Shown here piece by piece: positions 11,459 to 50,239 of a DNA stretch of 64,000 nt. The translations under genes were made by a program, and so were the position numbers. Position 1 is the first letter of the stretch, and each line of letters starts with the position of its first letter. Under the pieces are notes generated by a model, which ran no database searches, had not been told where the DNA came from, and saw nothing but the letters and a program-made list of their open reading frames with translations. This stretch comes from Psammoneis japonica (taxonomy: Eukaryota). Location of the stretch: contig QPGO01000083.1 of the NCBI GenBank assembly GCA_008632985.1, positions 99,075 through 163,074 of the forward strand, in the 5' to 3' direction.

Positions 11459-11620
11459 CAACAACGACATAAGAGATGTGGTGTGTTGGCACCTTGTTGG
11501 GGAACTCTTGCACAACAACGACGTGAGAGATGTGGTGTGTTGGCACCTTGTTGGGGAACTCTTGCACAACAACGACACAAGAGATGTGGTGTGTTGGCAC
11601 CTTGTTGGGGAACTCTTGCA
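11459..11620 (+). repeat. Three tandem copies of a 54-bp unit
   Basis: caacaacgacNNNagagatgtggtgtgttggcaccttgttggggaactcttgca x3. The only variable segment is ATA/GTG/ACA. Confidence 0.95.
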
Positions 11621-16200: not shown

Positions 16201-16264
16201 AGAGCCCCTCTTTTGTCCAGCATCTCTCTCTCTCTCTCTCTCTCTAAAAGCGTTTCCCACCACG

Positions 16265-21710: not shown

Positions 21711-22249
21711 GACTGCACAACAAGTGGAACCACCTGTCTTCCAGATTGCAGCACTTGTGGAACTTGATTGTGAAGTGAAAATGACAACAGCTCTCTTTGC
21801 AGATTGGCAGAGTCATTGTGACACACCTGCAATCGCTTTGTGCTGCATGACGTGGCTGTTCTTCTTGTCATTGTGCACTCACTGATGACACAAGTCAACG
21901 ATGTTTGACAGCTCAGAAACAGCTCATTGCTGAACTCTTTTTTGTTCTTCAATGGCTTTGATTTGGAGCACTTTAGCTTGTGCACTTGTGACAACAGCAC
22001 TCAAAAATGCTGTGACCCTGGTCTGTGACTGGCTTGCAACACTCATTGGGTGTGGCATTTTGCACATCACATTTTAAGAGGAAACAGCTTTTGTCATTTG
22101 GAGGATGCTTCTGAGGGCAAATCTTAACAAGGGCACTGGCTTGGGTCTTGTCAAGGTGAGGCATTGTGTCAACCTTTGATTCAGAGAGAGCACTTCCCAG
22201 GCCAACTGTGGCACCATCCATGCAGAGCTTTTGGGGCCATTGATGATGG

Positions 22250-24420: not shown

Positions 24421-24769
24421 CCTTTGACACAAAACTGTCATGTCCAACGCCATCTGAAACAGCCGCTTTGCCACATTTCAAAACCTTGCCCCCCTCTGGC
24501 ATTGGCCATTTACAAAAATGTCAGAGGGGAATGCATGACTTGTGCCACAGACTGCCATTTCAATCATTCATTGTTCCATCATTTGAAGCTGCCCTTGAAC
24601 CTGCGCAGCCCAAACAGACTGCGAGTGATGTAGTTTAGAGTTGGGGTGTTTCAACCATTCATTGTTCCATTGTTTGAAACAACCCTTGAACCTGCGCAGC
24701 CCAAACAGACTGAGAGCCAAAGGATTGTTGGTAAAAATGGTCTGCAATGCAGAGCTGTTTACAAAAATG

Positions 24770-25980: not shown

Positions 25981-26329
25981 TGTCAAACACACAGTCAGCT
26001 TGATGAAGGGAAAAAACCAATTTCAGTGTTTGTCACAAGACAAATGATGTGTGTTGGATGCAACGTGCCACGTTGTGCAAAATCAGAAAGGAGTCAAGCC
26101 AACAAAATGAATCATCCAATCTCCAGCAGCACAAATCACTGTTTTTTTCCCTTTTAAATGAGTCTCTGGTCTCAGATGTGCATGGCATTGTGCAGGCAAC
26201 AACTGGACACAAATGTGCAATGACCCTTCAAGCAAGACTGCAGTTGGAGTGCAGTGCAATGGATGCATGCATGACACCACATGACGGCAATGTTGGGGAG
26301 GCACAGCAGGTTTCATCTTGCTGTCATCA

Positions 26330-28280: not shown

Positions 28281-29324
28281 CATCAGAGTGCACGATGTCG
28301 CAATGTCTGCACACATGACAAAAATGTGTTGCCACATTGTAAAATCTACTCATCTGCACATGATGGTTTTTGTCATTCAGCCAATTGTTGATCTCCTGCT
28401 GTTCTTCATGTTTGAACACAGATGCTTTTTAATTTTTATGCTCAGCCTTTTTCACAACAACTGATGATCTTTAATGACAAGCCAAACGTTGCAATTGCAT
28501 GCAATGAAATTTTCATCATGTGAAGTGTGCACTGATCATTCAATCAACAACTGTGCTCCAATTGGCCTGTTCGTCCGCATCATCCTCTTCATTCCATGTG
28601 TCTTGTCCGCTCTCTTGCAAGAATTTCAAATGTGTGTGCCGCTGCCACGTTGGATGTTTCCTCGTCACCGTTCCAAAAAAGCCACACTGCATTTCTTGCA
28701 TTTGGGTGAACATCATCGAGAGGAAGAGGTCCCTTGAAACGCAGAATCGCATCACCGCTCCCCTCTTGACGTCGTGTCGTCTGCTTCTTTTTCTCTTTCT
28801 TCATTTTTCCCGTCCTGTTTTTCTCTTCCTTCTTCGTCTTGGCACCGCCTGTTTTCACCGTCTCCGGCGTCTTTCCATCCGAATCCTTCTTTTTCATCGA
28901 TCCTGTCGCCGTTGCCTTCATCGTGTGTCACTTTGTTTTGGATCCATGTTTCTGACTTCTCTCCATGCTGTCCCTGTTTCCGAATGTTTCTTTGTGATTG
29001 TTCGCATGCGTCACTTGAAGGCACCCATGTGTTCTTCACGTGCCTCAACGTGCACACAGAAATCCATGTTGTTTTTCAGCACATGCACCCTTTCTCCTGA
29101 TGCATGTTTTCACAACATTTTCTTCCATCAATTCTACACTCCGCATTGCCCTTTCCCGGTGCAATCTCACGCAGGATTTCTCTGGGAGAAGTCACATGCG
29201 CGTCTGGCAGGTTTTTGTGCACAAAACTCAAATCCCACCAGGCGCGCATGTGACTTCTCCCACGCACCACTCTGGCATGTTTCCACAGAAACCAGAATTT
29301 TGTGACTGACACACAACCAATCTG

Positions 29325-30314
29325 GTGAATGCAATGGCGAACCCACGACCACAACAATCAGAGCATTGGAAGAAAACCATGTCAGATGAACTCCGTCCAT
29401 CCACTGCTGAGGATTTCCATCACCGGATGATGGAGACAGTTGATGGTTTTGTTCACGCTGATGCTGCTTGTTGTTCGGAGGAACAGAGAGCAAAGGATGC
29501 AAAGGCTGCTGTGTCAAGATTGGCAGAAGCAATGGCAGAAGCCCGCAGTGCTTTGTCAAATCAAGCAACAACCACTCGCGAATTTAAGCACATCCATGTG
29601 CAGTTCATTAAGTCATCGATCAAGACACACCATTCAGACAACTACTGCATTGTTGCAGTGGAAAATCACAGCAAAGCAGAAATGAGTTTCCAATGCTTTC
29701 TTCACGGCAACGCATTTGACGCAAAAGAATTGGGGCTCCCAATCTCCATTGCGGGACATCAAAAATCAGAATGCAGGCTAAACATGCTGCACAGCTGTGA
29801 CTCGACGTTGCTTCTGAGAAGCCTCAGGGCAAATTCTGACACAGACGCCAACAGAGCAGCAGAGAGGGAGCAATCTGCGATTGACAGCATTGGCAAATCC
29901 ATCCACCGCCGTGCCGTGCCACTCCTTCGAAGGCGACATCTAACACAGCCGCAGCGCGTCCTGAAGGACACAATCACATTGCTCCACGAGGCCCTCAACA
30001 ATTTGACAAGGAAAGACGTTGCCTTGCAGTGACAGTGGCAAGCTTTGTATGATCTAAGGCCAGGCACAGATCAAATGCGGGGAGGGATGTAGACCGCGAT
30101 CCGGGCTGTGGACGAAGAAGCCATGGCAAGAGAAAGGGTCCTGCAGTTGGCATTGCAAATCGAGGCACAATTGGTGGCTGTCAACCAGCCTGACCACAGC
30201 GCCAACTTTCAGCAGGCGATTGTGGCTGCCAGGGAACATTTCATGGTGCAGGATGACCAAATGGACCGTGCAAGTGGACACTGCATAGAATCCACGAGGA
30301 AGCAATTGCTCTAA
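29325..30314 (+). pseudogene. Accessory ORF A of the Plavaka element, unknown function, two in-frame stops
   Basis: The 235-aa ORF and the in-frame 30108-30314 ORF read as one helical-looking protein interrupted by TGA and TAG. Confidence 0.5.
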
Positions 30315-30339
30315 AAATGCACACACTGTGAGTGAATGA

Positions 30340-33300
30340 CAGATTGACACGCGTGTCCCATTTTAGAAACAAATCTGACCAACACTTCCTTCTGTCCTGT
30401 GTGGCCCAAACAAACAGGGCCTTTTCTTGCGCTTCTGCTGCTCCTGGACATTCTTCATAAACCAAAACATTGTCCCCAATTGCTTTGACAGGGACAACAC
30501 GTAACTCAGGTGAGCACTGAGTCTTCTCAGGCATTGAAAGCCAGTTGTTTTGTTTGTGATCAAGCTGCCAGTGACTGACCAAGTCTGCATGCTGACACCG
30601 TTGCCTCACAGTTCTCTGGTCAGCTTGACAAGCAGTTGGATGGACAACTGCAAAAATCGATCCTGTGTCTTCCTGTTCGAAGAAACACAGCAAACGGGAG
30701 GGAAACTGTTGATCGCCCTTTCGTGTGCCAAAGGTCACATGGGCAAAGTCACACCATGGTCCTTCGCTTTTGCAATCGGGGTGCACACGGTGCGCATCCC
30801 TCCCACTTGCATTGTAAAACTCTGTCTTACAAGTCAGGTGTGCATTTTCACTGTCTTCACCAACACAATCCTCCCACTTTTCCGACATGAAGTTTGGCAA
30901 CACAGGGTGAACTTGGCAACGAGTGTGCTCACTGTTCCACTCAAACGTCACAGCGCCAATCCCTCAGTTGTAGGTGAGAGTGAACGCACTTCCTCCCAGC
31001 ATGTGATTGTCCGTCCTGACTCTTGATGATTCCTTTTTCCCAGTTGGCAAAATCCAACTGTCAGCTGAAATTGCAGCGTTGAGCCTCATTTGGTCCTCCA
31101 CACGCGACACGACCTGCTTCAGAAAACTGTCGAGGTTGCGTTGTTGTGCGGCAGATGACGGCAGCTTGAAAAAGTCTTTCAAGAGACATTCCCCCAAGCC
31201 TGCGTCAAAGTTCATCGCATGTCGGCAATGACAAAGAAACACTGGGAGATGGAGTGTTTCATGAAGCTTTTGAAGCTTCCATCCGCACCCTTCTGTTTGC
31301 GGGACGAATTGCACTGTCCGGTCAATGAGGAGACGGATTTTCTTGTTCATTTTCTGAACAGATGACTGGGAGTTGCGCTTGTGATGGGTGGATCGCCTAG
31401 CCTGTGCCATGCGTGGAAGACAAGAAGGTCCTTGAGCAATTGAATGAATTGCCGGACGCTGCAGTTGAGTCTTTTTCCCTTGCATTTTTTCTTTTTTTGG
31501 TTGTCCTCACCATCCTCAGCCTCACTCTCCTCTTTCTCATCCTCATTTTTGTCCCAGTCACCCTCTTCGGACTCCTCCAACCTTTCATCGTCAGAGTCGT
31601 CCAAGTGCTCACTAGGTTGGCAGCAACTCTCAAAGTTTGCTTTGGGCATCTTGCGATTCTCTGGAACAATGGGTTCGTCTGCGTCCTCGTCAAGGAAGCA
31701 TGACTCACATGCGTTTCGTCCCTTGCTGGTCAACAGGAGAAGGTAGAAAACAAAAGCCATTCCAGCCCAGTGGTGAGAGTTGAGGAAGGCAAGCAACGTT
31801 GCTCCTCCTTTGAAGTTTGTTCGCAAAAAGGATGCTTTGCAAGTTGACCGGTGATTGCTGAAAATCCTTTCCACCATGCTGTCCACCTCACTTGCGACCA
31901 CAGGTGTCATGCTGTCTACAAATGAATTGATTGCCCTTTTCAAGGTGCCATTTTCAAAGAGATGCATCATGTCGCTTGCTGTCACAAGGGCAACGCCGCA
32001 TGGTTGTGTGCCAAAGTCTGCCTCAAAAAGACAGTTGGCAGGCACGTTGTGTTGCTTGAGGCAATGCAAGATGCCCAACCAGTGCTTCCTTTCTTGGTCT
32101 GATCTGTTGTCGTCGTTGGCCTTAGTTTGCACTTGGTGGAGATCCAGTCCTCGGACAAACTCGCATTCAATCCATGGGTCGTCCAGTTTGTTGAAGCCAG
32201 TGAGGCAAAAACGACAGCAATGTTGACGACAGTTGTGACCTCCATGTCGTCCGACGAGACAGTCGCCGCTTTTTGCGTCTCCTATGATGAGAACGATCAG
32301 TGGGATTGCGTGGAGGTGTCGCATCTCATCCCCTCGTCGCACGTGTGTTTTCATGCCTCCTTTTCTCATGACTTCCAAAAGTGGCTCCAAAACAACACGT
32401 GAGCAAGTGTGGCAGTCTCTTGACGAGCGTCCCTTCTCCACCTTGCGATTGTTTGAGAGATTCTTTGCCGCAGATGACGACATCTTTTCCAAATCCGGGA
32501 GATGACCAATTGGTTTCCAGACACTCTTGTCCGACCATTTGTTGAAGGCAACATGCGCAGAGGTCATGATCACTGGCTCTCCGCAATGTGATCCCATCCC
32601 TTGTGTCCTGCCAGTCTTGTCGAGGTAAATGACATTGCACTCGAGAAATTGTTTCTCCAGGTCAGCCATCCATTCTTCGTAACTGCACCTGCACTACTCA
32701 CCCGCCAAAAGGCACTTGTCATCCGGTCCCTTCGCTTTGCACTTCCCAAAAGGATTGTCTGGATCGACCATGTTCTCTCTGCTGCACCACAGGTGAGGAT
32801 CGAGTGAAAACTGTTCCCAAACCTTTGTGAAATCCCATCTTGGCACTGACACTCGTTTTGGCAAACCGGTTTTGAAATTTTTGGTTTCTAGAGTGACAGG
32901 AACAGACTCGCTGGGTGGAAGAGGGAAATGCTTGGTTAAGGTGCGCATCAACTCTTTTCTCCTTGGCAGAACTGTGCCAAGCTTGATGTTGCTGCAGCAA
33001 AGGATTGACCACCGCCAACATCCAAATCGTTCATTGCCAAAAGTTCAACTCCTTGCATGCTGTGGTTTGATGAAATGGAGGACATGTCGTCCATTCCGTG
33101 CGGTGCGTCATCCGGGGAGGGGAACAAGGGGCTGCTGCGTGGATCACTCGTTGAAGATCTTGGGAATCTGCTGTGAGTTGATCGCCTCAGATGGGACTCG
33201 TCATCATCAGAGGACGAAGAGGAAGAACTGCCGCTTTCTTCGGGTGGCCCCTCTGTTGTGGCAGGAATGTCGCTTTGATCTGGGATTGGATCTTGGGTTT

Positions 33301-33450
33301 GCAACTCTTGGGCAACTGAGTGACACGTCTGCGAGCATCTCCAATGGCAGGCTGTTCACAAAAAACTTTGGCCACAACTGGGACAGAGAAGAGGGTTTCC
33401 GTCCATTGTAAATCAGACAATGTTGACAGGGCCTTCATCAAGACTCATGC
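30340..33450 (-). pseudogene. Plavaka-family transposase, frameshifted and hypermutated
   Basis: VIYLDKTG...EPVIMT...WKPIGHLPDL...RDCH..IIGDAKSGD.LVGRHG..CCRFC...DMMHLFENG...KLHETLH...NFDAGLGE.LLK.FFK.P...PWCDFAHV, spread over several ORFs. Ends approximate. Confidence 0.75.
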
Positions 33451-33858
33451 TCGTCATCCTTGTCTTGTGTATGAGAAGGGAAAAAAAGAACAACACGCAA
33501 AAAATGGCGGGAAATTGGCAAACATTACATTGTCTTCCAGATTGGGATGATTCTCACAGGCATGACATGTCTGCATTTTGATTTTTTGTCTGGCATCCAC
33601 AATGAATGTTGCACTTTTTATTTGCTGTCAAAATGCAGGACATTGTCTCCGTTGAAATGCAATGACAGCCACATCAAAAAGTGAGTTGGACTGTTCGTTG
33701 TTACACACAAATGTGTTTTCAAATTTCAATGTTGCTGACAACAATTTGTGCAATGTCACAGAGAAAAATAGAGTGCCTGGCTGTCTCAACACGACCCAAA
33801 CGACGGTTGCACTGTCGAACAGTGCCACTCCTCTCATTGTTGCTGTGAAAAGATCAAG

Positions 33859-35157
33859 ATGTTGTCTCCAGCACAACCGGCAAAAAAGAGAAAGAAAAAT
33901 GAGACCATCAAGCCAATGAGCCCGAGACTTCAGGCAGTGTTGAAGAGAACAGGTGCGCAGGCAGCGCATGGTGCATTGAAATCAGAAGTGGAGAAGGTGG
34001 CCAGAAATGATCTCTTTCCACAGGTGAAGTTTCTCAGTCCATCAGAATTGGCAAGCAATGGGAGCATCTCAATGTTTGTCAAGAAACAGATTGCTGGTGG
34101 CAACACGGACACTTCAAATTGGTCAGGAACTTGGGAGGAATGGGCAAAAAAGGCGGTAAAAAGGCAAATTGACAATCGCAGAAACACGGTGTGTTTGGCT
34201 GTTGGGGCGGAGGCAATGGCCAGCAAGCCAAGTGACCAATGTGTGTGATTGGAGAGTTGCACGCATCTCACAAGAAGATGACAGTGATGCTTTGTCTGTG
34301 TGGGCGTTGTCACTGAGGAAGAGGGAAAGGAAAAAGAAAAGAAACTCAAGGCGGCAGACAGGAGGAAAAAGAGGAAAAAGTCAAGCCGTGACAAGAATGA
34401 AGAGAATGACATCCCGTTTGTGCCGACATGGGATCCGTTTGGCCTGGACACTGTCACCAGCGGTAAACGAAGGAACAAGCAGGCATGCAAGTGGTTCTGT
34501 GATCACATCCTGCCTCAAACCAAGCAAAAGCAGGCGTGGAGCAGCACCATCAAAACTGGGAACACACAGGTCTCACAGTTGTTTACGGTCGGTGACGAAG
34601 CTTTGGCGCTGTCAGCCATGGAGAATTGTTGGCAGGTGTGGGCATGCAGGAACAAGGAGGAGGTGGTGGAAGAATTGGGTGAGGAAATGGAGCCTGAAGA
34701 AACAAGGCCTGCCCCTCAGCACATGAAGCCAAAGAAACAACGAGTGTCTTGGGGAGATGACGGAATCAATCGGTTCAACGATTCATGCAAAGAGGTGACG
34801 AAAGACAGAGACTCCAAGGAGGGCAAGGAGTTTGAAAAGTGGCATGTGGAGATCAAGAAAAGTGAGCACGAGAAGTCCGGAGAAGCAAAAAAGAAGAAAA
34901 AGAAAGCACCGACCGGTGATGCGGATGAGGTGAAGGCAATGAACAGCCCAATGGTGGAGAGCAACAGGGACGACAACAGCAACGACAATGAGCAGGAGGA
35001 AGGCGCAAAAGGCAAAACGGATGATGGAGGAGACGAGTCCGATGGAGACGAGTCCGATGATGATCACTGGCTTAGTTTAAGAGAGTTGCAGCAAGAAAAT
35101 GTGTGCACAGTTAACACAGCACTCGGTCATTGCACTGCAGACATGACAAGGGATTGA
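33859..35157 (+). pseudogene. Accessory ORF B of the Plavaka element, two exons with inferred intron 34223-34303
   Basis: VARNDLFPQVKFL...IDNRRN, then WFCDHILP...FTVGDEALAL..MENCW...WGDDGINRFN. The exons join in phase 1 if GCAAG and TGG are mutated GTAAG and TAG. True start may be further upstream. Confidence 0.6.
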
Positions 35158-35454
35158 CTCAACCGATGAAATGCTTTTCTCGTTTAAAACAATGTTTGCG
35201 AAAATTGACAAACCAAAGATTGTGTGGAAATGCAATCACGCATTGGCATGTGGCAACAAGGTGGAGGCAGATGTGGTGATGTGGGTGCAGTGAAAAACAG
35301 CATGCACAATTCTCAACAAGTTGTTGCAACATTGGTGTGGCAAACTTGCAACCAGAGGTTGGCCTTTCATCATGTGACAACAATGTTTTGCAACATTTTG
35401 GCAAATTGTCATCATGCAAATCTGCACATTTTCAACATTTCGTGCACTCTGATG

Positions 35455-35750
35455 CTCGCCTCACCTTTTGTGCTCTTGTCCTCCGCTGATTTCAGTTGGC
35501 ACCAACTCACAACTGATCACTTTGGCTTCTCTTGCCACTCCTCCACTCCTTCTCAATGAGCCGCTCAAACTCTTGGCTGCAACATTGTCCATCACTCATC
35601 CGCCCACGCTCTCCACTTCCTTTCCAACCTTTGCACTGATGCATCTCCCATCCCTTCTTCGAAATGCCCTTTGCACTGTCTCACGTGCCCCTTCTTTGCA
35701 CCCGCCCCTGAGGCTCTGCAGCTCTCCACCGTGCCCACTCCCGGCTTGGG
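35455..35750 (+). pseudogene. 3' remainder of the non-LTR element split by the Plavaka insertion
   Basis: ASPFVLLSSADFSWHQLTTDHFGFSCHSSTPSQ* continues the 28280 frame once the CT duplication is removed. Confidence 0.6.
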
Positions 35751-35914
35751 AGGTCTGCAAAATTGGTGCGGGAAGAAGAGGAAGAGAAAGAGCTCCGTGC
35801 CGGCCCATCCTCTTGCTGCTTTCCATTCCTTTTGCTGATTTTGCTCTTTGACTTTCTACTTAAAATAAAAAGCCGCCGCGCCGGCCGGCCACACTGTAAA
35901 AAAAAGCACGGCGC

Positions 35915-36096
35915 TCACTGGCCTCGTGGAGACCGACAAGGGGAGATGACCTCATTGCCCGTTGATGACGCACTGGGAAATCACCCCCCGCATCTGCCAC
36001 ATTGAACGCATTCAAGTTGGCGTTTGGAAGCGAGCTGCTGTTGCTCATTCTTCTGAAGAGCTTTAGCAGCAAGCCGAACAGACAGTCTAAAAGCGC
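35915..36096 (+). repeat. Split direct repeat A1 (182 bp; partner A2 at 41921-42102)
   Basis: tcactggcctcg...gacagtctaaaagcgc is present at both positions with the same length. Confidence 0.95.
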
Positions 36097-36162
36097 CATT
36101 GTGTTCGGCGGAGGATGCCATCCGCCGCTGCACCCACGAGGCTCGCAGGATAGTCACACATT

Positions 36163-38420
36163 GTGAACCAAGACGGAAATGTCGGAAATGATCCACTGCC
36201 GGATGCCGCTGAGGTGGCACAACAACCCCAACAACCGATTCCGGCGGCCAACAACGCCCAGAATGTGCCACCAGCACCGGTGCATCCCGTGGTGCCGGCA
36301 GCACCAGGAGCAGCGGCACAACCTGCCACAGCGCAGGGAGGACAAGCCCCGGGAGGGGCTCCCCAACAGCCGGCACCTCAAGTGCCACCCGTCCCGCCAG
36401 CAGGTCCCGTGGGGCAGGGAGTTCCAGCGCCACCAGCAGTGATCCGGGCCTGTTGGGATTGCTGCTCACACGCCACAAAGGATCCGTGCGCCAGCAACCA
36501 TGCGGAAATCATGCAGGACTTCATGGTCCCACCACAAGGGCAATCCCGCTGTAATCCCAACGTGTTGAGGACACGTGTTGGAGCAGCCTCTTCACACGAT
36601 TTGCCTGTGGCACTGATGCAGCACTGCCGGGTGCAAGGAGGCAACGACATGGGAGTCACGCAGGTGTTTCATCGCGCAACCCAGCACCCGATCATGGTGG
36701 CAGGACCAGCACAACCGTGGGACGGACAATTTTTTGCGCTCGCAGGCGACCTGACGATGGGACAATGCCAACTTGCACCCATCGCCAACGATGCCTTTCA
36801 GCTGGCCCAACACGGCACATGGGTGCCGACCGACGCAGCGCTGCAAGCTCACATTGTCACGACCCTGGAAGGATTGCACCCACAAGTTCAGCCGAATGAC
36901 CAGACGCGGTTGAGGTCAGGACGCGGAACACCATGATGGTGCCATTCGCGCATGTTAATCTCTTGCTTTCAATGCCGTTGACGCCAAAGCAGGCATTTAC
37001 CCGGGTGCTGGGGGCTGTCACGGTTGCCAATGCGGTCAACGAATGCAGGCCACTTCTGGACTTTTTAAAAGTGGCGTGTTGCGCGACAGCATGGGACCAA
37101 CACACATCCGAAGCAGTGCAAGCATGGCCAACGATGGTGCAGCCACCCAACGAAGCACTCATTCGTTTCTTTGATGTGATGGTGCAGCGTGACCTTCCGC
37201 ACCGCGTGGGCCAACCACCGCAACCGCGCCAGTTCGAACCAGTGGTCACGGCCATTGAGAGCTTAACAGCAGAACAGCGCCAACAATGTTTAGACGTGGA
37301 AGCGCGCCAACAGGCGGCATCGCGCGGCAAGACACAAACGGAGTTCTGCGGAGAGTTTGGCATCGCCAAACTCATGCGTTTGTGCCAGGTGCATCACGAA
37401 GCTAACCCACCACCACTCTGGGCGCAACTGGCGGCCTCTCCCAAGACCGGCCGCATTGCTGCCATCCAAAATGCAATCGATGAGCAACGGCAAGCACACC
37501 ACGTGTACTTCAGCATGCCAGTGACCGTGAACCTGGTCACAAAACTCACCCAAGTCGACTTTGCTGGGCACAACAAGGACGAGTTAACTCAAGGAATCAC
37601 CCCCTTCTTGTTCGGCATTGCTGCACCGGAGCACGCCGAGCAGACCGCCTGTCGCAGCTCCATGCACCAACAGATTCATGGAGGCAATGGCACACCGCCC
37701 TTGGTGGATGCGCGTGTGTTGGAGGCCCCGGACGACGCTGTGGTGGCCACTGCGATCCAGGCAGTTCAGCAGTCTTTCAACGGTTTGCGCATGGTCCTCT
37801 CAGCAGCCTTTGGCGTGGCACATCCACTGGCACAGTGGTTGACTCACATGCACCAGTCAATGGATGTCTGCGCGAACGATTTGGCGGTGCAAGTGGTGTC
37901 GCACCCGACGTCACCAGCGGACCTGCAACGTTGCACGCAGGCAAAGATGTGCCATTGGTTCCAGGCGCAGATGCACTCACAAAACCCTGTCCCATTTCAA
38001 CTGCTCCCAGTGGTGGCTGAGGCCGCACAAGGCACCTGCTGTTGGCGTCTCAACCTGCCGACGTCTGTCCTTCAACCACCCACGACACCGCGGTCGCAGA
38101 CCTCTGGGCAGCCACAGCCAGGACAAAACCGCGTAAATGCGTCTGGCGACAATTCCATCGTCCGCAACAAACAGTGCGACGAACGTTTCACGGTCTTGCG
38201 GGAGCGCCCCAATGTCCGTTCGCACACCGTCAAGCAGCGCTGCGCCTGTGACAATGTCGCCTTGCCCACGGATTCCCAAGGGGTGCCACGTTGTCTCCCA
38301 TGCCATTTCATTGGACAGTGCAACAACAACTGCGGATCACGCGCCAATCATCATCATAACCACATGGAGCAGGAGCAGGTCGACCTTCTCACGTGGGGTG
38401 CGCAACATTGGAAGACCGAA
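36163..38420 (+). pseudogene. gag-like ORF1 with C-terminal CCCH-type zinc finger; frameshift near 36930
   Basis: Pro/Ala/Gln-rich N-terminus and C-terminal CLPCHFIGQCNNNCGSRANH, in the first-ORF position of the element. Confidence 0.65.
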
Positions 38421-38559
38421 CAGGTCATCGGCAATGGTTCCTGCTTGGGGACATGGAACCAAGAGCCACTTCCCGCACGGGCACACAAGCCCATGCATCC
38501 ACAACCCCCGCAAGTGGAGTCTAGAAAACGGCCCTTCCACCCCACAACACGTGGACAGG

Positions 38560-40620
38560 ATGTGGCTGCATCAGTGCTGACTGACAAATTAGGCAAGCAA
38601 ATTGCACGCGATGCAAAATTATTGCGCCTTAGAGGCCTCAGTTGCTTGTTGCGTCTGCACAGTGGCAGAGGTGACTGGGGACCATTGGTGACAACGCGAC
38701 AGCATGCAGCACACCGAGTGCTCACCGGTTGCAAATTTCGAGGGGTGCCGGTCACTGTTGCAGACAAGCCATGGTCCAACGCTGAGCTCCAAGGCAGCAT
38801 CGCTCGAGGACCACACAAGTCCGCCTACGAATGCATTGAGTTTTTGTGCGAAGACATGTCTGACTGTGTCAACAAGGGTTTCTGGGTGGTTGTTCCATAC
38901 AACGACGTCCAAAATGAGCCCAATCTGCGGCTGAGTCCCATTGGCGTTGTCCCACAACATGCACGTAGACCACGACTGATTGTGGATTACACGTTCTATG
39001 GTGTTGATCCCTCTGCTCAGCCCAACGTGCCAATGGAGTCCATGTAGTTCGGGCACACGCTGGACCGCATCCTGCGGTGCGTTCTCCTTGCCAATCCCAA
39101 CAAGGGCCGTGTCCATCCAATGAAGATTGACCCAGCTGACGGTTTCTGCCGCATGCAGCTGGCGCCCGAGCAAGCACCCACACTGGGTGTGGTTTTTCCC
39201 CAACTTCCCGGGGAACCTCCCCTGGTGGCCATGCCAACTCGGTTGCCCATGGGATGGTCCAACTCGCCTCCGGCATTGATTGCCAGCCAGTGCGCAACCA
39301 TCTGGCACCGGAACACCCACTCGAACCTTGCCTTGACAGCCGCCCACCAAAGCACCATGCTGTCACTGCTGACGTGAATCCGTCCATCGCTGTCCCAGTG
39401 CCAGACACGCCAGATCCACACCTCGTGCACCGCCGCCGGCGGCACCTCCAACATGTCGACATCTACGTTGATGACTTCATTGGCGCCGCCCAAGGCTCCA
39501 AACAATCGCTGCGCAACGTGCATCGCACGATCATGCACGCCATTGACGATGCATTTCGTCCACTCGACAACCGAGACCACGCGAGTCGCAAGGAGCCAAT
39601 CTCAGTCAAAAAGCTCCGCAAAGGCGACGCCACTTGGTCAACGCAGAAGGAGGTCCCAGGGTGGATCATTGACACTTTGTCCATGACCATCCGCCTTGCG
39701 CCGCGACGCCGCGAGCGCCTCCGCACCATGCTGTACGAAGAGTTTCCCCACCATCGCAAGCGGGCAGTGCTCACCGACCTGCACAAGCTTCTTGGCGAAC
39801 TGCGATCCCTCACGCCCGGCATTCCCGGGTCTCGCAATCTGTTCTCCGAACTCCAGGAAGCCTTGCTCCACACCAAACCCGACGGGCGAGTTTGTCTTGC
39901 CCGCAATTTTCATGACACATTGGACGATTTTCGGTTGTCATGCCGCGGGCTTGATCTCCACCCCACCTGTGTCCAAGAACTTGCTCCCCTGTCGCCCACT
40001 GTCACGGGCTGCCATGATGCAGCCGGTCATGGTGCAGGTGGCATTCTTCTCCCTGCGCCATCAGCGGTCGCATGCAGCACCACGCTGCGTTGCTCCACTG
40101 CTTGCCGTCGGAGACCACAACACAATGCCGGACCCATCGTCTGGCGCATGCATTTCCCTCAAGCAGTCACCGACCACCTGTCCACCTTTAAGAATCCCCG
40201 CGGCCCTGTTGCCAACACCGAATTGGAGTTGGTCGGCAGCATTGTGCAATCCTGTGCCGCGGCGGACTGTTTCGACGTTCGAGAGCGCACAGTGCTTGAC
40301 CGCACGGACAACACCGGCACTCTCTTTCGTCAACGCAAGGGCTCCACCATGACTGCGAAGGTTGCAACACCCCTCCTTCGATGCCAAGGTCACCACCAAC
40401 GTTTCCACTGCCACCTGTCTCTCCACGACTGCTTGCCGGGACCGTTAAACACCGCTGCAGACGACGCCTCTCGCTTGCAACATTTGTCCAACCGTGCCTT
40501 CTTGCAACATTTTAACACTCACCACCCACAGACTCCCTCTTGGCGCCTTTGGACCCTGCCACCCGAGCTGCGTTCCTGTGTGATCTCGGCGCTGTGCAAC
40601 ACGCCATTGCCCACGGCATT
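38560..40620 (+). pseudogene. Reverse transcriptase / RNase H (pol), with stop and frameshift
   Basis: LRLSPIGVVPQ..RRPRLIVDY, KIDPADGFCR, LPMGWSNSPP, IYVDDFIG, HDAAGHGAGG, ELELVG, TDN, PGPLNTAADDASR. Confidence 0.9.
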
Positions 40621-41694
40621 GCCGCTTCTTCCGCCAGCTCCAGCAACACCCACTGGGACCTCTGGCAAAGTTTCTGTGACGACTTGGCCCTCGACCCTCT
40701 CTCACAAGACGTCAGCGACCCAGTCATCTTTTTCCAAGTTTTCATGCACCGATTCTGTACAGGCGCCATCGCCCCACGTGGCAATCCCGTCCGCGCACGC
40801 ACCGCTGAGGGTGCCTTACGGTCGATTGGCCAAACGTTCGCTGCAATGGGGTCCCCGGACCCGCGGCACACACTCCAAGGCAACATGGATTTCTGCATTA
40901 GCCGCCAAATCCGTTTCTACAAGAAAGAGGATCCTCCACCAGACCGGGTCAAACCGGTCCCCGTCGCTGTCCTCTTGTGGATTGCCCACGCCGCTTCCCC
41001 AACCAACCATCCGGGCACCCAAACCATCGCAGACATGACTGCTTTGGCCTTTTTCTTCCTCCTGCGGCCAGGCGAATGCACCGCCACCCCTTCCGACACC
41101 ACTCCATTTCGGTTGGGCGACGTTCGCCTCTCTGCTGGAGGTGCTTGCCTCGATTTGTTCACCTGCACTGATGAACACCTCGACACCGCCACCTTTGGCA
41201 TGCTCACTTTTGCCACACAGAAGAACAGCGTGCGTGGCGAAGTGACAGGCCTTGGCCTGTCCAGACACCCTGACCTCTGTCTGACACGTGCCCTCATCCG
41301 TCGTGTGAAACATCTCCGCGCCTTTGGTGCCACACCAGACACGCCCCTGGGTGTGTGCTTGCACAACAACACCTGGTGCCGTGTCTCTCCCGCCGACATC
41401 ACCAGCATCCTGCGCACCGCAATTCTGGCAATCAGCCCCGCTGCGCTGGGTTTCACACCCGCCAATGTCTCCACTCGCTGTTTGCGCGTGGCTGGTGCCA
41501 TGGCCCTCCCATGTGCCCATGTTGACGCCAACGTGATCCGCCTCTCAGGCCGATGGCGCTCCGACGAGATGCTCCGTCACCTCCACTTACAAGCAGAACC
41601 CGTCATGCGCAATTTCGCAACCCGCATGTTGGCGGGCGGCCAATTTGTCCTGCACCCCAATGCCGACGTGCCCCTTGCTGCCGCCGACCCGTGA
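40540..41694 (+). pseudogene. Tyrosine recombinase of the retroelement; catalytic Tyr position reads His
   Basis: AFFFLLRPGECT ... QKN ... STRCLRVAGAMAL ... IRLSGRWRSDEMLRHLH. The family pattern is LRPGEY and GRWxSxxMLRYLH. Confidence 0.85.
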
Positions 41695-41792
41695 TTCCAT
41701 CACAGGCCACGCCTCAGCCTTCCAGCCGGGCCCACCCACCCACCCAATTGCACCGCCACTGCCTGCACCAGTGCACGTGGGTGGTGCCGGAA

Positions 41793-42185
41793 TGGCCACA
41801 CTGTTCCAGCTTGGGAATGGAAAGGGACCAACTGCGCTGGCAAAGTCCTCCCATCCATGCCAATTGCCTTTCCCTAGAATCAGATCACCGCAAGAAGTCG
41901 TGCGAGCAAAGCAACGCCAGTCACTGGCCTCGCAAAGACCGACAAGGGGAGATGACCTCATTGCCCGTTGATGACGCACCGGGAAATCACCCCCCGCATC
42001 TGCCACATTGAACGCGTTCAAGTTGGCATTTGGAAGCAAGCTGCTGTTGCTCATTCTTCCAAAGAGCTTTGGCAGCAAGCCGAACAGACAGTCTAAAAGC
42101 GCTCCCACCTCTCCCTCCCTCTGGCCACACCGTTCCAGCTTGGGAATGGAAAGGGACCAACTGCGCTGGTGAAGTCCTCCCATCC
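41793..42185 (+). repeat. 3' split repeats B1-A2-B2
   Basis: The 64-bp B unit tggccacac.gttccagcttgggaatggaaagggaccaactgcgctgg..aagtcctcccatcc flanks A2 on both sides. Confidence 0.9.
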
Positions 42186-42337
42186 CTGCTGGTTGCCTGA
42201 AAATCACTCGCCACCATGACGAGTGCCGCCGACGCGCCGTCGTGCAGCTCTGCGGCCGTTTCGCATTTTCCAATGCGGTGCCACCAACGCACTGTGTGAC
42301 TCTTTTATCTAAAATCACTGGCTTCAATGTTGTCACA

Positions 42338-43397
42338 GGGACACACGGCATTTTGTCGCATTTGGTGACATTTTCTTAAATGAATTGATGATTTGTCGCG
42401 AAAAGACGCAAATTGCGACAAAATGTCCGGGTTGGCGATAAACGGGACAGAAACATTGTTTGGCCAAGTCATGAAATGATCAATGTCATTGTTTGCAACC
42501 AACCTGAACTTTGGCGATGTCGTTTCAATGAGTGGGGCAATTAACAGAATTTGGCGATCGATGTCATCAACGAAAATTCATCCGACAAAATTTGTCGCAT
42601 CCGACAAATTTTGTCGGACAAATTTTGTTGGCATGTGACAAGACACGACACGACAAGACACGACAAGACACGACAAGACACGACAAGACACGACAAGACA
42701 CGACACAACAAGACACGACACAACAAGACACGACATGACACGACACGTCACGACACGACGACTCACGAACGAAACACCCACGCCCCCCGCACACGCTGGC
42801 CGCTAACATCTCCGTTGACACTGCCGGCATGTCTCTTTTGCACGATGATGCAAAGCGACGATCATGCCGCTCTCGGCGGTCTCCATGCTCTCGTCAATGC
42901 CGGGACAACATCGTGCGCTTCTACACAGTGCAACGGAATGCACCGGCATGTGTTGCTGCACTGTGCCTTTTGTCAGTGCGACTGGGCACTTCTGAATGTT
43001 GGGGAGCGTTGCGCCATCGGCATGTCGCAATGCGTTTGTCGGCTCTTGTCGGCGTTTGTCGTACGTTGTCAGGGTTTGTCGGGGCTTGTCGGGGTTTGTC
43101 GGGGTTTGTCGGGGCTTGTCGGGGTTTGTCGGATACGACAAAATTTGTCGCACGTACGACAAAATTGCCAAAACATCAATTAACAAGTGCAGTCTTCACC
43201 GAAAGTTAAATTCATCACACCACAGCACTTTGGTTGATTTAACGTTTGTGTTTGGGACACGCCATTGCCAATTAAATGATGATTTTGTCTTGTTTATCGC
43301 CAACGGTTGAAATTTGTCTCAAAGGGCGTTTTTCACGACAAATCGTCCAATTCATTTATGGGAATGTCGCAATTGGCAACAAAATGCCGTGTGTCCC
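42338..43397. mobile_element. Non-autonomous TIR element (1.06 kb) with ~130-bp imperfect TIRs and internal CGACAA/TTGTCG arrays
   Basis: GGGACACACGGCATTTTG ... CAAAATGCCGTGTGTCCC ends. (cacgacaaga)n at about 42637-42760 and (gtcggggttt/gtcggggctt)n at about 43067-43132. TSD not clear. Confidence 0.8.
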
Positions 43398-44269
43398 AGA
43401 ATGCCACAACCATTTAAAGCAAGGCTTCGAAAACGAATGGCAAATCTTCTGGGGTCAAACACAGTCACACTCAATTGTGACCTCGAAACCCTTTGTTCGA
43501 CCATTGAGCCATGCACAGCTTGCAAGAATGAGATCCATGCATGATGTGTGGAAAGTTTTTGTTGAGCTGGGTTTTGCACCGGAAAATGTGCATTGTGTGT
43601 CTCTTGCTGCACCCGGTCCGTCGCGTTGAGAGGTTGTGACGCGATGTTGCACTGCGCGGCATGCAACACCGAAACGAATGAATTTGCGACGCACTCCGTC
43701 CATTTTGAGCAGCGTTGCCATGGTGTTGGAGCAGTTCAAGACTCTGTCACTCATGCAATCACTCCTCCGAACCCCAAGATTGATCCAGTGTGTCATCCCA
43801 TGCGAAACAAGGAGAGCCCGGATCAACTCTTTTGAGTCAAATTAAATGACATCTCAGTTCATCAAAAGGTTCAAGATTCCGCATCCTGACCTTTGATGGA
43901 CATGAAGAGGATGACAAAGTTGCTCTAGTTTCAACTGTTCGGCCTGCTTGCTCACAGGAAGAATGGACTGACGAAATGAAAGAAGCGCTCAAGAAACTCT
44001 TCAAGCGCAAATTAAGTCCGACTCCAATTTCAAGTTACAGCAAAGCTTCGTGGGGTCTTTCTGTCCAGGTGCAGGTGGTCCGCATCTTCACAGACAAGCC
44101 CATTTCGCCGAGCCCCTCTCCGAAACAGCATCCAAGTCATTGCGCCTTTCATGCGGGTCAGAAGTCACCCGACAAGGAATTTCACTGCCCATCCTTGTGG
44201 CCAACTCGACATTGTTCCAATGCATTCAATTGCTGTTCATCTACACTGTTTGTGTCACAACCCAAAACT

Positions 44270-44765
44270 GAGCATTGTGGAATGTGCGCAACACTTGATT
44301 TGAATGTCGGAACAATTGGTGCAAGCTCTGGGTCTCGCACTGGGATTGGACGCTGACGCACTTGACTGTTTGTTTCAGAAGGATCCATTCCGCCTGCTCA
44401 AACTCACATCCAGCAGATCCACACAACCACATGATCCAGAACAAGACACCAGTGGTGTCGATGCTCGCACGGATGCAGGACTCTGCACTTTGCTTCTTCA
44501 AGATCAAGTGGGAGGCTTGCAAGTCAATCCACTTCTAAATGGAAACGACTGGATCAGTGTTCCACCCACTGGACCCGACATGGTGGTTTGCAACCTGGGC
44601 GAAGTTGCCGAGCTTGTGAGTGGCCGGCATCTCTTGGCCACACCACTCTGTGTTGTGATGTCGCCCTGTGACAAGGCACGCATGTCCATTTCCCGTTTTT
44701 TTTTTACAATCCGACAAACGCTTTCAGTTTTTCGAAATCGGGCAAGTGGGGGACTGCGGCACTGA
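44270..44765 (+). pseudogene. Fragment of an IPNS/DIOX-like 2OG-Fe(II) oxygenase
   Basis: ALGLALGL...GVDARTDAGLCTLLLQDQVGGLQV...WISVPP...VCNLGE...SGRHLLATP..V...RMSI. HxD motif lost; TA depleted. Confidence 0.75.
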
Positions 44766-46584: not shown

Positions 46585-47243
46585 GTTCTGTTGAAATATA
46601 TCGTATGGCAACAAAAGGACAGAACGCAGAACGCAGACCAAATAATAGAGGACGGCTCACTTTTGGCTGCTAAAGGATAATCGAATCCAAAATAAGATAG
46701 ATGGATCTACGACAGAGATGGCGTTTTACAACTCTGACAACAACACACTCTTGGCAGCAACAACAACTTGAGGCTCGAGGTGACGTGAAGAAGCAATGTT
46801 GGAGATCGTGGATCGTGGCAGATCATGGCAGATGCGAGAGAGGCAGGTCGCGCGACACCGGTTAACAGGAACAACCACCGCTGATTGGGGGGCGCGCTTC
46901 CCCCTGACGTCACGGGTTAACCGCGCTAACCGGGGGGAGTCCTCAGTGGTTCCTGCCCGTAGGAGGCCGGCGCCGGAACCACCCCCGGAACCGGTTCCCG
47001 GACCCCGGATAGGCCTGTGGTTAGTGAAGATAAGAACCTTCAGAACAGGACAAGACGTAAAATCCACTTATCGAAATGTTCTTTCTTCCCACTCGAATGT
47101 CAACATGATTCGAAACGACTCCACTTATCGAACGCCATAAGTGAGCGTTTGATTTCAAAAACCTCTTTTCTTTTGATAGTAAGGTGGGTGCACCCCAAAA
47201 GATTATCCCTCGAGGCTATCATAATGAGCAGAACAGACCCAAG

Positions 47244-49295
47244 ATGGCGTCTCAGGTCTCCATAGGAGACTTGTTGGCCCAAACCATCACACCACCCAAG
47301 GTGGATGGCACTTATGTCACTGAGTGGAATGCATACAAAAGGTGGGTGGATGAATCGCCGGCTCTGTCGGGGCCGCCTTACTTGACGCGAGACCAGGTCG
47401 ACCGGTACTTCTTGGAGGTAGTGTCGAAACGAGACGTCACGCCGAAGTCGGCCAAGCGTGTCATTTGGTCACTGCAGCATTATTCATCTTGGGAGGAGCA
47501 CAAACCTCCCAATCCAAAATTCGTTGTGAGATCAGAGGCAGTTGACGTCGCTCTGGTGGCACACAAGGAGCGATACACCCAAAATTTGCTCACTACGTTT
47601 GTATCAGCTCATGACAAGCTGCCTACGGATACTCTGTCTCGTGTTGCTGAGGATAAGATATTGAATTATATTATTCAATCTGCTGCTTGGAAGAACTTGG
47701 TAGTGTCATGGACCAGCTGCAGCCAGACCATGATACGAGGCGATCAGCTCCGACTTACACGCTATGCGGATATTCACTATGACGAAACTCACGGCCCCGG
47801 CAACCCAAACGAATCGGTCGCACGTCCAATGATAGCTCTGATTGAGCAACGGTTTACAGGCAAACGAGGTTCCCACAAAAAAAGAGTTGCAGGCATGTGG
47901 CGGCACCGCGACTGGAAGCGATGCGGAACCGGTATGAACGCCGCCGTCGCCGCCTGCAGGTTTCATAGCGATACGGAAATCCACTTCATACATCAACATG
48001 ACGGTTTCCCGGACTGGTACAAGTGTGAACTAGTGGGTTGGAAAACATTAGACACGCACCGTAAGGCATACCAACGGGTATACAGGGCAACAAAGACGTC
48101 GTGGGCAAAGTGTACTCACCTTCGCACCGCCGGCATCGATTCTAGCAACATGGGCGGGGCGACCAAGCAAAATATTGAGCAGCAGACGAAGCATGGAAAA
48201 GATTCACTTGACGTCTCATACTTGCCTGAGATCCCTCCACAAGTGCAGTTGATTGCCGCCGGGTTCTCTAAGCTGCATGGGGAGAAGGTTTACTACGTCC
48301 CTCGTACCAACATATCCTTCGGCGAACTAGTTCCCGGAAAACCAAACGTCACTGATACTGAGTTGGCAGAGATGATATGGCCAAGACTGCCTGCATGGAA
48401 ACAGCAACACAATGTTGGTCGTAAGTGGCCATGCGGTACAAACTTTTTATATGGGACCTTACCTTTTTTCGCTCGCGTCCTGTGCCAAGACGGTATCCAC
48501 TGGGTCACGGAGTATCCGCAGCACGAAGTATCCCGTCTATTGGTTCGTGTTTTTGGCGGCAGGTACATTGAGTGGGCAAGGGACAGGCTTCAAGAGTTGG
48601 CTGATATGGACACTGCAGAAGAAGACGAGATTCAAAATCTGAACATTGCTGCGCAGACAGCTTTCTCCTCGGTTCGTACCGATACACAGGTTCTGGTTGG
48701 GAAAATGGATCGACTGTCAGCAGAAGTTCAAAATTTCACTAACATTATTCTGAGGCAAAACCAGCAGCAACAACAGCAGCAACGTGAGCAGATGCAGAGC
48801 ATCAGAATGGCTGTGAGTAGTCGGAATGCGATTCAGACACGTACCGTATTGGATTCGAATCCAACTCGCTCGCGCATCGTTCAGCATCTGCCTCCGCCGC
48901 CGTCAGGTGCTACTCAACCATACTTTCCAAAAGAAATGCCAAAGACAATGACCAAATTGTTGGAGGAGCACCTGGAGTTTCAGTTGGAACAGTACAAAGG
49001 AGTGAGCAAAAAGAATTGGCAGGGTGGGGTCACTATGCAGCTCAGTCGTCGTTCATACCTGTATGGCTTGATTCTGAAACGGTCTGAGCGAGTGCGTGGT
49101 TTTTCAGACCGTGCCGCTGTACTCCAGGAATCTGCAAGGCTGATTGACGAGGAGAGAGGTACTATGTCACTCAGACAATTGTATGATACTTCCAAGGCTC
49201 AATCTAGTGATACCAAGCGCCGTAAGGTCGACCGCTCCCAAGGACCGAAGAAAAGATCGCGTCGCATCCAACCTCTCCCATCGGAAGATGCGTGA
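47244..49295 (+). CDS. Crypton-type (NDC10-like) tyrosine recombinase with GCR1_C-like C-terminal domain; intact ORF
   Basis: MIRGD, RHRD..RCG.G, KCTHLRTAG, SYLPE.P...AAGF...YYVPR, VLCQDG. C-terminal PKTM..LLEE...LEQYKG..W...LSRR..LY..I. Likely ATG at 47244. Confidence 0.75.
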   Translation: MASQVSIGDLLAQTITPPKVDGTYVTEWNAYKRWVDESPALSGPPYLTRDQVDRYFLEVVSKRDVTPKSAKRVIWSLQHYSSWEEHKPPNPKFVVRSEAVDVALVAHKERYTQNLLTTFVSAHDKLPTDTLSRVAEDKILNYIIQSAAWKNLVVSWTSCSQTMIRGDQLRLTRYADIHYDETHGPGNPNESVARPMIALIEQRFTGKRGSHKKRVAGMWRHRDWKRCGTGMNAAVAACRFHSDTEIHFIHQHDGFPDWYKCELVGWKTLDTHRKAYQRVYRATKTSWAKCTHLRTAGIDSSNMGGATKQNIEQQTKHGKDSLDVSYLPEIPPQVQLIAAGFSKLHGEKVYYVPRTNISFGELVPGKPNVTDTELAEMIWPRLPAWKQQHNVGRKWPCGTNFLYGTLPFFARVLCQDGIHWVTEYPQHEVSRLLVRVFGGRYIEWARDRLQELADMDTAEEDEIQNLNIAAQTAFSSVRTDTQVLVGKMDRLSAEVQNFTNIILRQNQQQQQQQREQMQSIRMAVSSRNAIQTRTVLDSNPTRSRIVQHLPPPPSGATQPYFPKEMPKTMTKLLEEHLEFQLEQYKGVSKKNWQGGVTMQLSRRSYLYGLILKRSERVRGFSDRAAVLQESARLIDEERGTMSLRQLYDTSKAQSSDTKRRKVDRSQGPKKRSRRIQPLPSEDA

Positions 49296-50239
49296 GGTTG
49301 AAGGAGGTCGAGTGTTTTTTGTGTTTTTGTAACTCTATAGCCCCTGCATTTTTTGTTTTCAATTTTTTCCATCCTCCCGTGTAGACCCCCAGTGAAAAAT
49401 GTACCAGAAGAAAGGCTAAAAGCCAGTCAAGCCGCTGCTTTTGTTGTCTCACAACATTTAACGTCGCGTCATCGGATCACTTAAGTGTCAGGGGTCACGT
49501 GAAACTGTCGGACATTTTTCGATCGTGACTGAAAAGTCATCAATAAATGTTCTTTCATCGTCTATAATTGAATGATGTCCTGCCCCTAAGTAGAAAGGGC
49601 CTGCGTAGGTTTTGGTACTGATGTACGCGGTAACCGGCGCTCACCGAGGCCCTAACCCCCAGGCTCCGGAGAGCCTGCAACCTTGTCAGCATGCAACCTT
49701 GTCAGCATGGCAGGGATGGAGATCATGGTGGAACCTTTGCTGATGCTGCACAAGGTGCAGGCAGGCATGGGGGTGAATGCAGAGACCTTGCAAAAGACAA
49801 TGCCAGCTTCTCGCTGTTGTGAGAGGAAACCCAAAAGCAAACAAAAGAACACCTGTTTTGGTTGCACTGCATTCTTCATAACACCCTGATGCTGGATCGG
49901 TGAAGGGAGAGGAGGGCGAAATGCTGCTGCATCTTACAGATGCTCTGCTCGCAGACTGCTGACTCCTCTTCCATCTCCATCCGATCTCTGCTCACTCCAG
50001 CGCACGCTCGCATCGCCAAAACTGTTGATGAAAAATGAGCGTCAGCACTTCTAAAATAGAAATGTCTTCGCTCTCTCTACTCTAGCTAGCTAGAGAGAGA
50101 GCAGCTACTCTAGCTACTAGCTAGAGAGTAGATAGTAGGTGTGGCGATGGCTGGCTGGACAGTGGACAGGCTGCAGCTGCGTGTGGTGGATGCAGAGGTT
50201 GGAAACCCAGCATTTTTTTCAATTATCACATTACTATAT

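Follow-up and report, generated by a model that had tools for sequence, protein, structure and literature searches.

Transposon copies in the diatom Psammoneis japonica have lost most of their TA dinucleotides (TpA) to TG and CA. The process is a much stronger variant of a once-reported TpA hypermutation, which we found in print for one unrelated alga only. We analysed a stretch of 64,000 nucleotides (nt), hereafter the window, on the forward strand of contig QPGO01000083.1 (assembly GCA_008632985.1, positions 99,075 to 163,074). At 35915..42185, the window contains a dead Ngaro-type tyrosine recombinase (YR) retrotransposon of ~6.3 kb. The element itself is ordinary, but the process recorded in it is not. 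The loss is of one substitution type, hits both strands alike, is indifferent to reading frame, runs ahead of CpG decay, favours a pyrimidine 3' of the edited adenine, acts separately on the members of both repeat pairs and spares gene-rich blocks. We suggest that a host adenine deaminase, at work on chromosomal DNA in silenced chromatin, probably converts TA to TG or CA, and that tyrosine, start and stop codons are lost as a side effect.

TA loss across Ngaro copies

The element was compared with 20 fetched stretches, nine of them close copies and eleven more distant. The nine close copies and the window copy represent eight insertions, with common flanks between the window and L031 and between L032 and L035. 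One insertion covers 850 nt only and was left out of the counts over seven insertions. An intact metagenome relative (L054) has three open reading frames (ORFs) of 740, 873 and 395 codons, which map in order onto the window copy, and a 69% identical homologue of the window YR (P0001) was used for a structure model. The element comprises the following features:

35915..36096, plus strand: split direct repeat A1, 93% alike to A2; its 5' end is the same in other insertions with unrelated flanks
36163..38423, plus strand: ORF1, gag-like by position, with a Cys/His cluster near its end; tblastn match to L054 ORF1
38424..41038, plus strand: ORF2, reverse transcriptase (RT) with RNase H, 42-47% identity to L054 ORF2 (E 1e-180)
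40516..41694, plus strand: ORF3, tyrosine recombinase, overlapping ORF2; 554 homologues, Cre-like fold of homologue P0001
41793..41922, plus strand: split direct repeat B1, 91% alike to B2 over 77 nt
41921..42102, plus strand: split direct repeat A2, 93% alike to A1
42122..42198, plus strand: split direct repeat B2, 77 nt, without its last ~53 nt; ~130 nt in seven other copies

The window element has an observed-to-expected TA ratio (TA o/e) of 0.14. Over seven insertions, TA is kept at 205/1342 site-copies and CG at 2385/3033, and the products of TA loss are balanced over the strands (587 TG, 550 CA). At 56 sites, the alignment column of up to 10 copies contains all three states (TA, TG and CA). 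A test for strand runs found none in 9/9 Ngaro copies, along which TG and CA alternate at random.

The initial annotation attributed the losses to an editing of tyrosine codons that would efficiently disable tyrosine recombinases. Tyrosine is indeed nearly gone (9 in 1950 codons of the window element against 47 in 2008 of the intact relative), and tyrosine codons read TAY, the favoured context. However, TA is kept at 32/264 (12%), 48/316 (15%) and 63/489 (13%) of sites at codon positions 1, 2 and 3 (p=0.53), in counts to which columns changed alike in all copies are invisible and with p-values made optimistic by the shared ancestry of the copies. Such equal retention refutes a process aimed at tyrosine codons. 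Retention reaches 27% in the non-coding ends, non-coding repeats and non-YR elements, including DNA elements, are hit too, and editing is absent from a YR-type gene at a distance of 5 kb. We therefore regard codon-directed editing as extremely improbable.

The terminal repeats bear on the timing of the loss. Repeat pairs A and B of YR elements are described as identical in the available parts of two sources (PMC4157794/PMC8547959). They are identical in the metagenome relative L071, where assembly collapse is possible. Across 14 A/B repeat pairs from seven P. japonica insertions (1974 nt), 59/125 differences are TA-type (28 of TA against TG or CA, 31 of TG against CA), 40 are CG-type and 26 are other. 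Divergence of the pairs at TA sites points to chromosomal DNA as the substrate, with editing for the most part later than insertion. Between the two assemblies of the window's insertion, 98% of the edited TA-type sites are in agreement but 112 CG sites differ, so TA was lost first.

The same observations bear on an editing of element RNA by an ADAR-type enzyme, with the edits returned to DNA by reverse transcription. The element is a retroelement, some edits are common within a subfamily, and ADAR prefers U before the edited A, as stated in the available text of a recent report (10.64898/2026.01.13.699255). But strands are equally hit within each copy, which largely refutes editing at the RNA level. 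In addition, TA sites differ between A1 and A2 and between B1 and B2, one insertion can carry TG in one copy and CA in another, and the loss is also seen in a probable DNA element and over 68% of the window. An ADAR-type origin is thus highly improbable.

A base-calling or assembly artefact has a practically negligible chance of explaining the pattern. Only one sequencing run contains the stretch; it may come from the source sample, and no platform is recorded for it. No RNA data set is listed with the stretch, which has no bearing on expression. Against this, contigs of that run match the listed window pieces without differences, its variant places comprise 289 transitions and 32 transversions, and the two assemblies of one insertion agree as described. 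Loss also scales with copy age, and the same scars occur in unrelated metagenome contigs.

Tyrosine, start and stop codons

The erosion of TA has removed tyrosine, start and stop codons, and most individual calls of the initial annotation hold. The Cys of LRPGE[C] at 41077 and the His of MLR[H] at 41578, the predicted nucleophile, each stand where 117/120 homologues have Tyr. Seven copies read TGC (five) or CAC (two) at the first site. The nucleophile codon is TAC in three, TGC in two and CAC in four of nine copies, and thus the ancestral state and both products are seen directly. The catalytic position was proposed from conservation, from its place eight residues after a conserved Trp and from the Cre-like fold; in the P0001 model the adjoining residues 339-345 have predicted local distance difference test (pLDDT) scores <50, and the Foldseek match comes without a residue alignment. 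Further calls were borne out for DGF[C]R (Tyr in 45/46 relatives; TAC, TG and CA forms among copies) and HD[C]LPG (Tyr in 63/76 relatives). At CLP[C]H, relatives are split between Tyr (7/14) and Trp (7/14), and the predicted change is likely since eight copies (TGC in six, CAC in two) indicate an ancestral TAC. The call at G[C]HDA was mistaken: Tyr occurs in 0/71 relatives, while Cys occurs in 9/9 close copies and 11/11 copies of a second family, never His, which identifies Cys as the ancestral residue.

Initiation and termination codons are hit as well. The suspected loss of the gag start from TTATG is confirmed: ORF1 begins with GTG within TTGTG, and eight copies (TCATG in four, TTGTG in four) are consistent with an ancestral TTATG. 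The stop closing ORF1 is erased, reading CAG at 38421, with CAG in five and TGG in three of eight copies. The proposed direction of change, from TA to TG or CA, is supported by tyrosine conservation and by the intact copies. CpG decay is a second, slower process missed by the initial annotation. It strikes conserved Arg codons: YR residues 81 and 127, which are Arg in 116/120 homologues, have changed to Cys.

A survey of the genome extends the disabling of recombinases to at least three families. It covered 57 YR loci, including the window and duplicates and excluding most fragments, from 41 DNA and 111 protein matches. The predicted nucleophile Tyr is kept in 7/55 copies and both tested Tyr in 0/53, consistent with the earlier view that the recombinases are broadly disabled. 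Over the YR stretch, TA o/e does not exceed 0.27 in 54 genomic copies (median 0.095), compared with a median of 0.545 for 80 metagenome relatives. In L200-L206 and L214, which form a third and distant YR family, the LRPGE position is His in 8/8 copies. The Tyr may be dispensable in this family, or an early edit may have been inherited there.

A Crypton-like element as a time series

The order of events is best seen in a second element of the window, separate from the Ngaro element and 5 kb away from it:

46845..49677, plus strand: Crypton-like DNA element with a 716-codon open frame (NDC10_II, Pfam E 1.3e-5, below the cut-off)

The Crypton-like label is probable. The window copy lies between genes and is essentially unedited. 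It has 23 matches in the genome at 100% to 73% identity, including one tandem pair on C31. Nine other copies were returned as loci and polarised against the window copy. Their TA loss amounts to 1%, 11%, 13%, 57%, 73%, 76%, 87%, 88% and 93%. The first six have CG loss of at most 5% and at most 0.5% difference at other sites; copies with 57-76% TA loss differ at 0.3-0.5% of other sites. CG loss of 27-70% occurs only in the three oldest copies. Five of the nine copies illustrate the series:

TA lost 1/114, CG lost 1/169, other changes 1/2253
TA lost 15/113, CG lost 3/165, other changes 3/2229
TA lost 64/113, CG lost 5/169, other changes 9/2253
TA lost 87/114, CG lost 6/170, other changes 12/2265
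TA lost 99/107, CG lost 107/153, other changes 141/2167

TA is lost much faster than CpG decays. The young copies also define the sequence context. Pooled over five of them, two of which form the tandem pair with 57/75 outcomes in common, A to G changes affect 261/1136 TA, 11/1960 AA, 15/2021 CA and 1/1875 GA sites, and CpG decay (CG to CA) 27/1688 sites. TAC (104/375) and TAT (104/340) are edited about twice as often as TAA (34/209) and three times as often as TAG (19/204). The 3'-pyrimidine bias recurs in Ngaro copies (359 vs 251), and TA is kept at 82/205 of those Ngaro sites where both adenines precede a purine. Strand runs were absent from 6/6 Crypton-like copies tested.

Such data speak to error-prone repair synthesis of the polymerase eta/iota type in methylated repeats, for example during patch repair of T:G mismatches from 5-methylcytosine deamination. 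TA loss and CG loss do occur in the same blocks, and polymerase eta prefers W-A sites. However, AA to AG changes are ~40 times rarer than TA to TG changes (the 11/1960 and 261/1136 above), and TA loss rises to 76% at 4% CG loss. Changes show no clustering on one strand, and TA beside CpG is not favoured. Repair synthesis is therefore a very unlikely source of the mutations.

Sparing of genes and the role of repetition

Segmentation of the window by composition separates blocks nearly free of TA from gene-bearing DNA:

5147..16764, unstranded: TA-erased block, TA o/e 0.05, CG 0.32
19566..44704, unstranded: TA-erased block holding the Ngaro element with Mutator-like element (MULE) and Plavaka remnants, TA o/e 0.10, CG 0.58
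53262..60216, unstranded: TA-erased block, TA o/e 0.08, CG 0.22

The three TA-erased blocks make up 68% of the window with TA o/e of 0.05-0.10, and the four gene-bearing blocks have TA o/e of 0.49-0.58. The silicon transporter (SIT) family, with 24 matches in the 91 Mb genome (best E 2e-208), includes paralogues 88% and 99% alike that keep normal TA, the 99% pair being possibly allelic.

Repetition itself could be the trigger, as in repeat-induced point mutation (RIP), with DNA targeted through homology pairing independently of chromatin. In favour of this, TA is scarce in all 54 YR stretches measured, editing can begin inside a copy with normal flanks, and the most edited young Crypton-like copies include the tandem pair. 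Yet copies more than 99% alike stay nearly unedited, although such young copies may not yet have met the trigger. One copy is edited over only part of its repeated length, and the SIT paralogues are spared. In the alga Bigelowiella natans, the target of TpA hypermutation is single-copy according to the available text (10.64898/2026.01.13.699255). We consider a repeat-sensing trigger quite unlikely.

Several neighbouring genes and remnants were recorded in passing. Pfam identifies MULE and Plavaka transposase remnants at 20634-21812 and 31350-32693 (minus strand) in the second TA-erased block. A gene with a TFIIS helical bundle and a SAD/SRA domain (45538-46656, minus strand) lies at the edge of this block, and an FAA hydrolase fused to a short-chain dehydrogenase is encoded at 50243-52051 (minus strand). 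Elsewhere in the genome, a single 1511-codon frame with three silicon-transporter matches occurs at G000:C38:226311-230342.

Proposed mechanism and candidate enzymes

We are nearly certain that the losses reflect a targeted TpA hypermutation at the DNA level. Targeting through silent domains is likely, and direct deamination of adenine, which is the least complicated chemistry and was also proposed for B. natans, is the one that we slightly favour. A new copy would first be silenced, probably by CG methylation. The domain, rather than sequence alone, would set the target. Site by site, the A in 5'-TA would then be altered and become fixed as G through replication, with most edits falling after insertion. 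A change on one strand would leave a site that is no longer TA, which could account for saturation at 85-93%. CpG decay and indels would follow more slowly. Editing declines in the direction of flanks with normal TA. An influence of the surrounding domain is suggested by one Crypton-like copy, edited inward from a TA-poor left flank, in which the last 25 TA beside a normal flank are untouched; an edge of editing lies within G000:C156:161400-163495.

Several observations weigh against parts of this mechanism. The flanks of nine copies carry the domain argument, and among the copies are two lightly edited ones, with 12 and 15 TA lost, between normal flanks. Internal edits between normal flanks suggest that editing can be nucleated by the element itself. 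Sites of TA no more than 5 nt from a CpG are edited less (62/90 vs 84/96). Among the 207 columns scored as TA in the Ngaro alignment, 125 hold only TG and CA, and their TA origin is assumed. Edits are also not all independent: TG or CA outcomes agree at 916/1425 site pairs (0.64) within a subfamily and at 658/1336 (0.49) between subfamilies, and 33/162 coding columns are fixed in a subfamily. Shared outcomes suggest that a source copy, already edited in part, probably went on to produce new copies; a synonymous bias among the inherited edits was not significant (18/33 vs 202/513, p=0.10). Finally, the sequence fits deamination of A and a lesion on the paired T equally well, and the TadA/ADAT-type genes of the genome are candidates only, resembling an ordinary housekeeping set with no expansion.

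The chemistry could accordingly differ under the same targeting, with TpA bearing a modified base, either methylated adenine or oxidised thymine, that miscodes or is deaminated and so turns A:T into G:C. The strict dinucleotide context, the action on both strands and the site-by-site pattern fit a modified base equally well, and no deaminase stands out in the genome. On the other side, the genome has no match to TET/JBP, a result that does not amount to absence given that a control was also without match, and TadA-type enzymes prefer TA. On balance, a modified base is unlikely.

Candidates for the deamination that we favour include genes which, from their motifs, we take to be a TadA-like gene (C38:7371), an ADAT2-like gene (G000:C26, C26:119854) and other housekeeping deaminases. 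C5 methyltransferases have 27 matches in the genome. Two further deaminase frames were seen. L220 (G000:C2) carries at 1105-2067, on the minus strand, a candidate AID/APOBEC-like deaminase frame (C2:247428) of 320 codons from stop to stop (NAD2 E 1e-8, with HAE and PCxxC motifs). At 319-1791 on L137, minus strand, a zinc deaminase domain is fused to what is presumably a 2-oxoglutarate/iron oxygenase.

Classification of the element

The initial annotation described a complete Ngaro/PAT-type element with an intact architecture. The Ngaro type and the A1...B1-A2-B2 layout stand; the PAT alternative and completeness do not. The last ~53 nt of B2, present in 7/7 other fetched copies bearing B2, are missing from the window copy. 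ORF1 is frameshifted by a 1-nt deletion at ~36900, and its tblastn matches to the ORF1 of L054 (E 2e-47 and 1e-10) accordingly fall in two frames. A 34-nt deletion at ~39280 shifts the frame of the RT, which also carries a TAG stop at 39047 where 8/8 sister copies read CAG. The truncation, the two frameshifts and the stop contradict the label complete, and the window copy would be dead regardless of its tyrosine losses.

Protein domains are highly divergent. A Pfam scan of the four element ORFs in the window gave no match, nor one to an integrase family, and a scan of five homologues gave none either. L054 yields weak matches to RVT_1 in ORF2 (E 0.21) and to an integrase (E 0.16). PDB sequence searches with the YR profile and with L054 ORF2 found no relative. 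The YR was identified from a fold search alone, in which the P0001 model (pLDDT 90.9) matches Cre (Foldseek E 1e-7, template modelling score 0.58-0.68). ORF2 of the window contains a YVDD motif at ~39464 and what we take to be RNase H-type motifs.

By the structural definitions in the available parts of PMC4157794 and PMC8547959, the element would be a Ngaro element and not PAT or DIRS1. Split direct repeats end in internal repeats downstream of the YR, gag-like, RT/RNase H and YR frames follow in this order on one strand, a YR with a Cre-like homologue model replaces a DDE integrase, and no methyltransferase domain follows RNase H. L054 ORF2 has no Pfam methyltransferase match at E<=1, where a very divergent methyltransferase is still possible, and two methyltransferase motifs are absent in the window and L054. 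PAT elements, of the DIRS group, were rejected since they combine split direct repeats with the methyltransferase. DIRS1-like elements require inverted terminal repeats and an internal complementary region, and the terminal repeats here are direct. One derived Pat1-like lineage also lacks the methyltransferase, according to the available text (PMC4157794/PMC8547959), so the rejection of PAT is not complete, and the structural features are described as homoplasious (PMC4157794).

The closest described counterpart is the Ngaro of Cafeteria burkhardae, which the available text presents as ~6 kb long with an A1-[ORFs]-B1A2B2 layout, three ORFs (gag-like, RT/RNase H, YR) and no methyltransferase (PMC8547959). 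Its YRs carry His-x-x-Arg where the window, P0001 and L054 have R-x-x-R (PMC8547959). In contrast to that element, RT and YR are barely detectable by Pfam here, and the window copy is dead. An LTR/Ngaro repeat class is already listed for the diatom Chaetoceros muelleri in the part of the source available (10.64898/2026.04.27.720831).

When the left flank was used to look for the empty target site, the sole matches were a 155-nt repeat and the same insertion on C454. On G000:C454, the window's insertion (flank 97% alike) contains ~7 kb extra inside ORF1 and ends in a single B repeat. A ~396-nt element with inverted ends, in two subtypes 72-93% alike, is found in L031, L032, L033 and L035. It accounts for five insertions in Ngaro copies, two of them independent at window ~36905.

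Comparison with known systems and significance

RIP of ascomycetes changes C to T, creates TA and destroys transposons after insertion. The process in P. japonica is likewise a context-specific transition hypermutation of transposons after insertion. It differs from RIP in the absence of TpA enrichment (TA o/e 0.14), in near-identical copies that can escape and in the lack of single-strand tracts. CpG decay of DNMT5-methylated transposons is reported for diatoms in the available text of PMC9998398. Here, too, the same blocks lose CG to TG or CA and the genome encodes C5 methyltransferases. But TA loss is separate and faster, and CpG decay cannot remove TA.

The nearest precedent is the TpA-only A:T to G:C hypermutation of integrated nucleocytoplasmic large DNA virus (NCLDV) and virophage DNA, described by Mettrop et al. 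in mutation-accumulation lines of B. natans (bioRxiv preprint of 2026, 10.64898/2026.01.13.699255). The available text puts the rate per generation at a ~1000-fold increase in some lines only, proposes an ADAT2-like deaminase as a candidate only and reports RT and DDE domains as enriched among TpA-poor coding sequences (10.64898/2026.01.13.699255). Both systems turn TpA into TpG or CpA only, on both strands, and are confined to foreign or mobile DNA, as far as the B. natans text goes. In P. japonica, the pooled TA, AA, CA and GA counts show the same confinement to TpA, the TG and CA products are balanced, and gene blocks are spared relative to repeat blocks; one young mobile element, the Crypton-like copy, is spared alongside host genes. 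The differences are in host and scope. B. natans is a rhizarian with edited viral DNA, whereas a diatom, a stramenopile, here shows losses in transposons of several classes and over 68% of the window. TA o/e of 0.05-0.14 is near saturation, compared to 0.45 in the B. natans NCLDV region (10.64898/2026.01.13.699255). The 3'-pyrimidine bias, edge effects and timing relative to CpG decay are seen here and are not among the main-text findings on B. natans. Speed was given there as a rate per generation, and the copy series here yields only a relative speed. No account of TpA erasure in a diatom came up in our literature searches, from which subscription journals were mostly missing.

Metagenome data point to further hosts. 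The two Tyr sites read His and Cys in a related YR element (46% to P0001) on contigs L126 and L130. Its TA o/e is ~0.25, 28/66 differences are TA-type, and TA changes stand at 38 to 2 against a 69% identical relative. The gene-like flank on L130 has normal TA. A protein, P0002, carries the same scars. The scars on both contigs suggest at least one more organism with TpA erasure. The near-identical relatives L055 and L057 have normal TA content and differ by TA-type changes at 27/57 places, which may represent the process at its beginning in a third organism. Tentatively, a natural DNA adenine base editor of ancient origin, TadA/ADAT-type or APOBEC-like, could be common to diatoms and chlorarachniophytes. 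Guided by silent chromatin, it would erase TpA from new transposon copies shortly after their arrival, as a genome defence opposite to RIP, and would be active in further eukaryotes of the metagenomes.

A TpA-specific A:T to G:C mutator here reaches saturation in several transposon classes, with measurable context and edge behaviour. Stripping of tyrosine, start and stop codons produces spuriously long open frames, obscures domains in Pfam searches and makes transposons look older than they are. Diatoms with gene-knockout tools make the enzyme and the targeting signal testable. If true, a natural adenine deaminase acting on genomic DNA would constitute a new genome-defence pathway and would be of interest for base editing.

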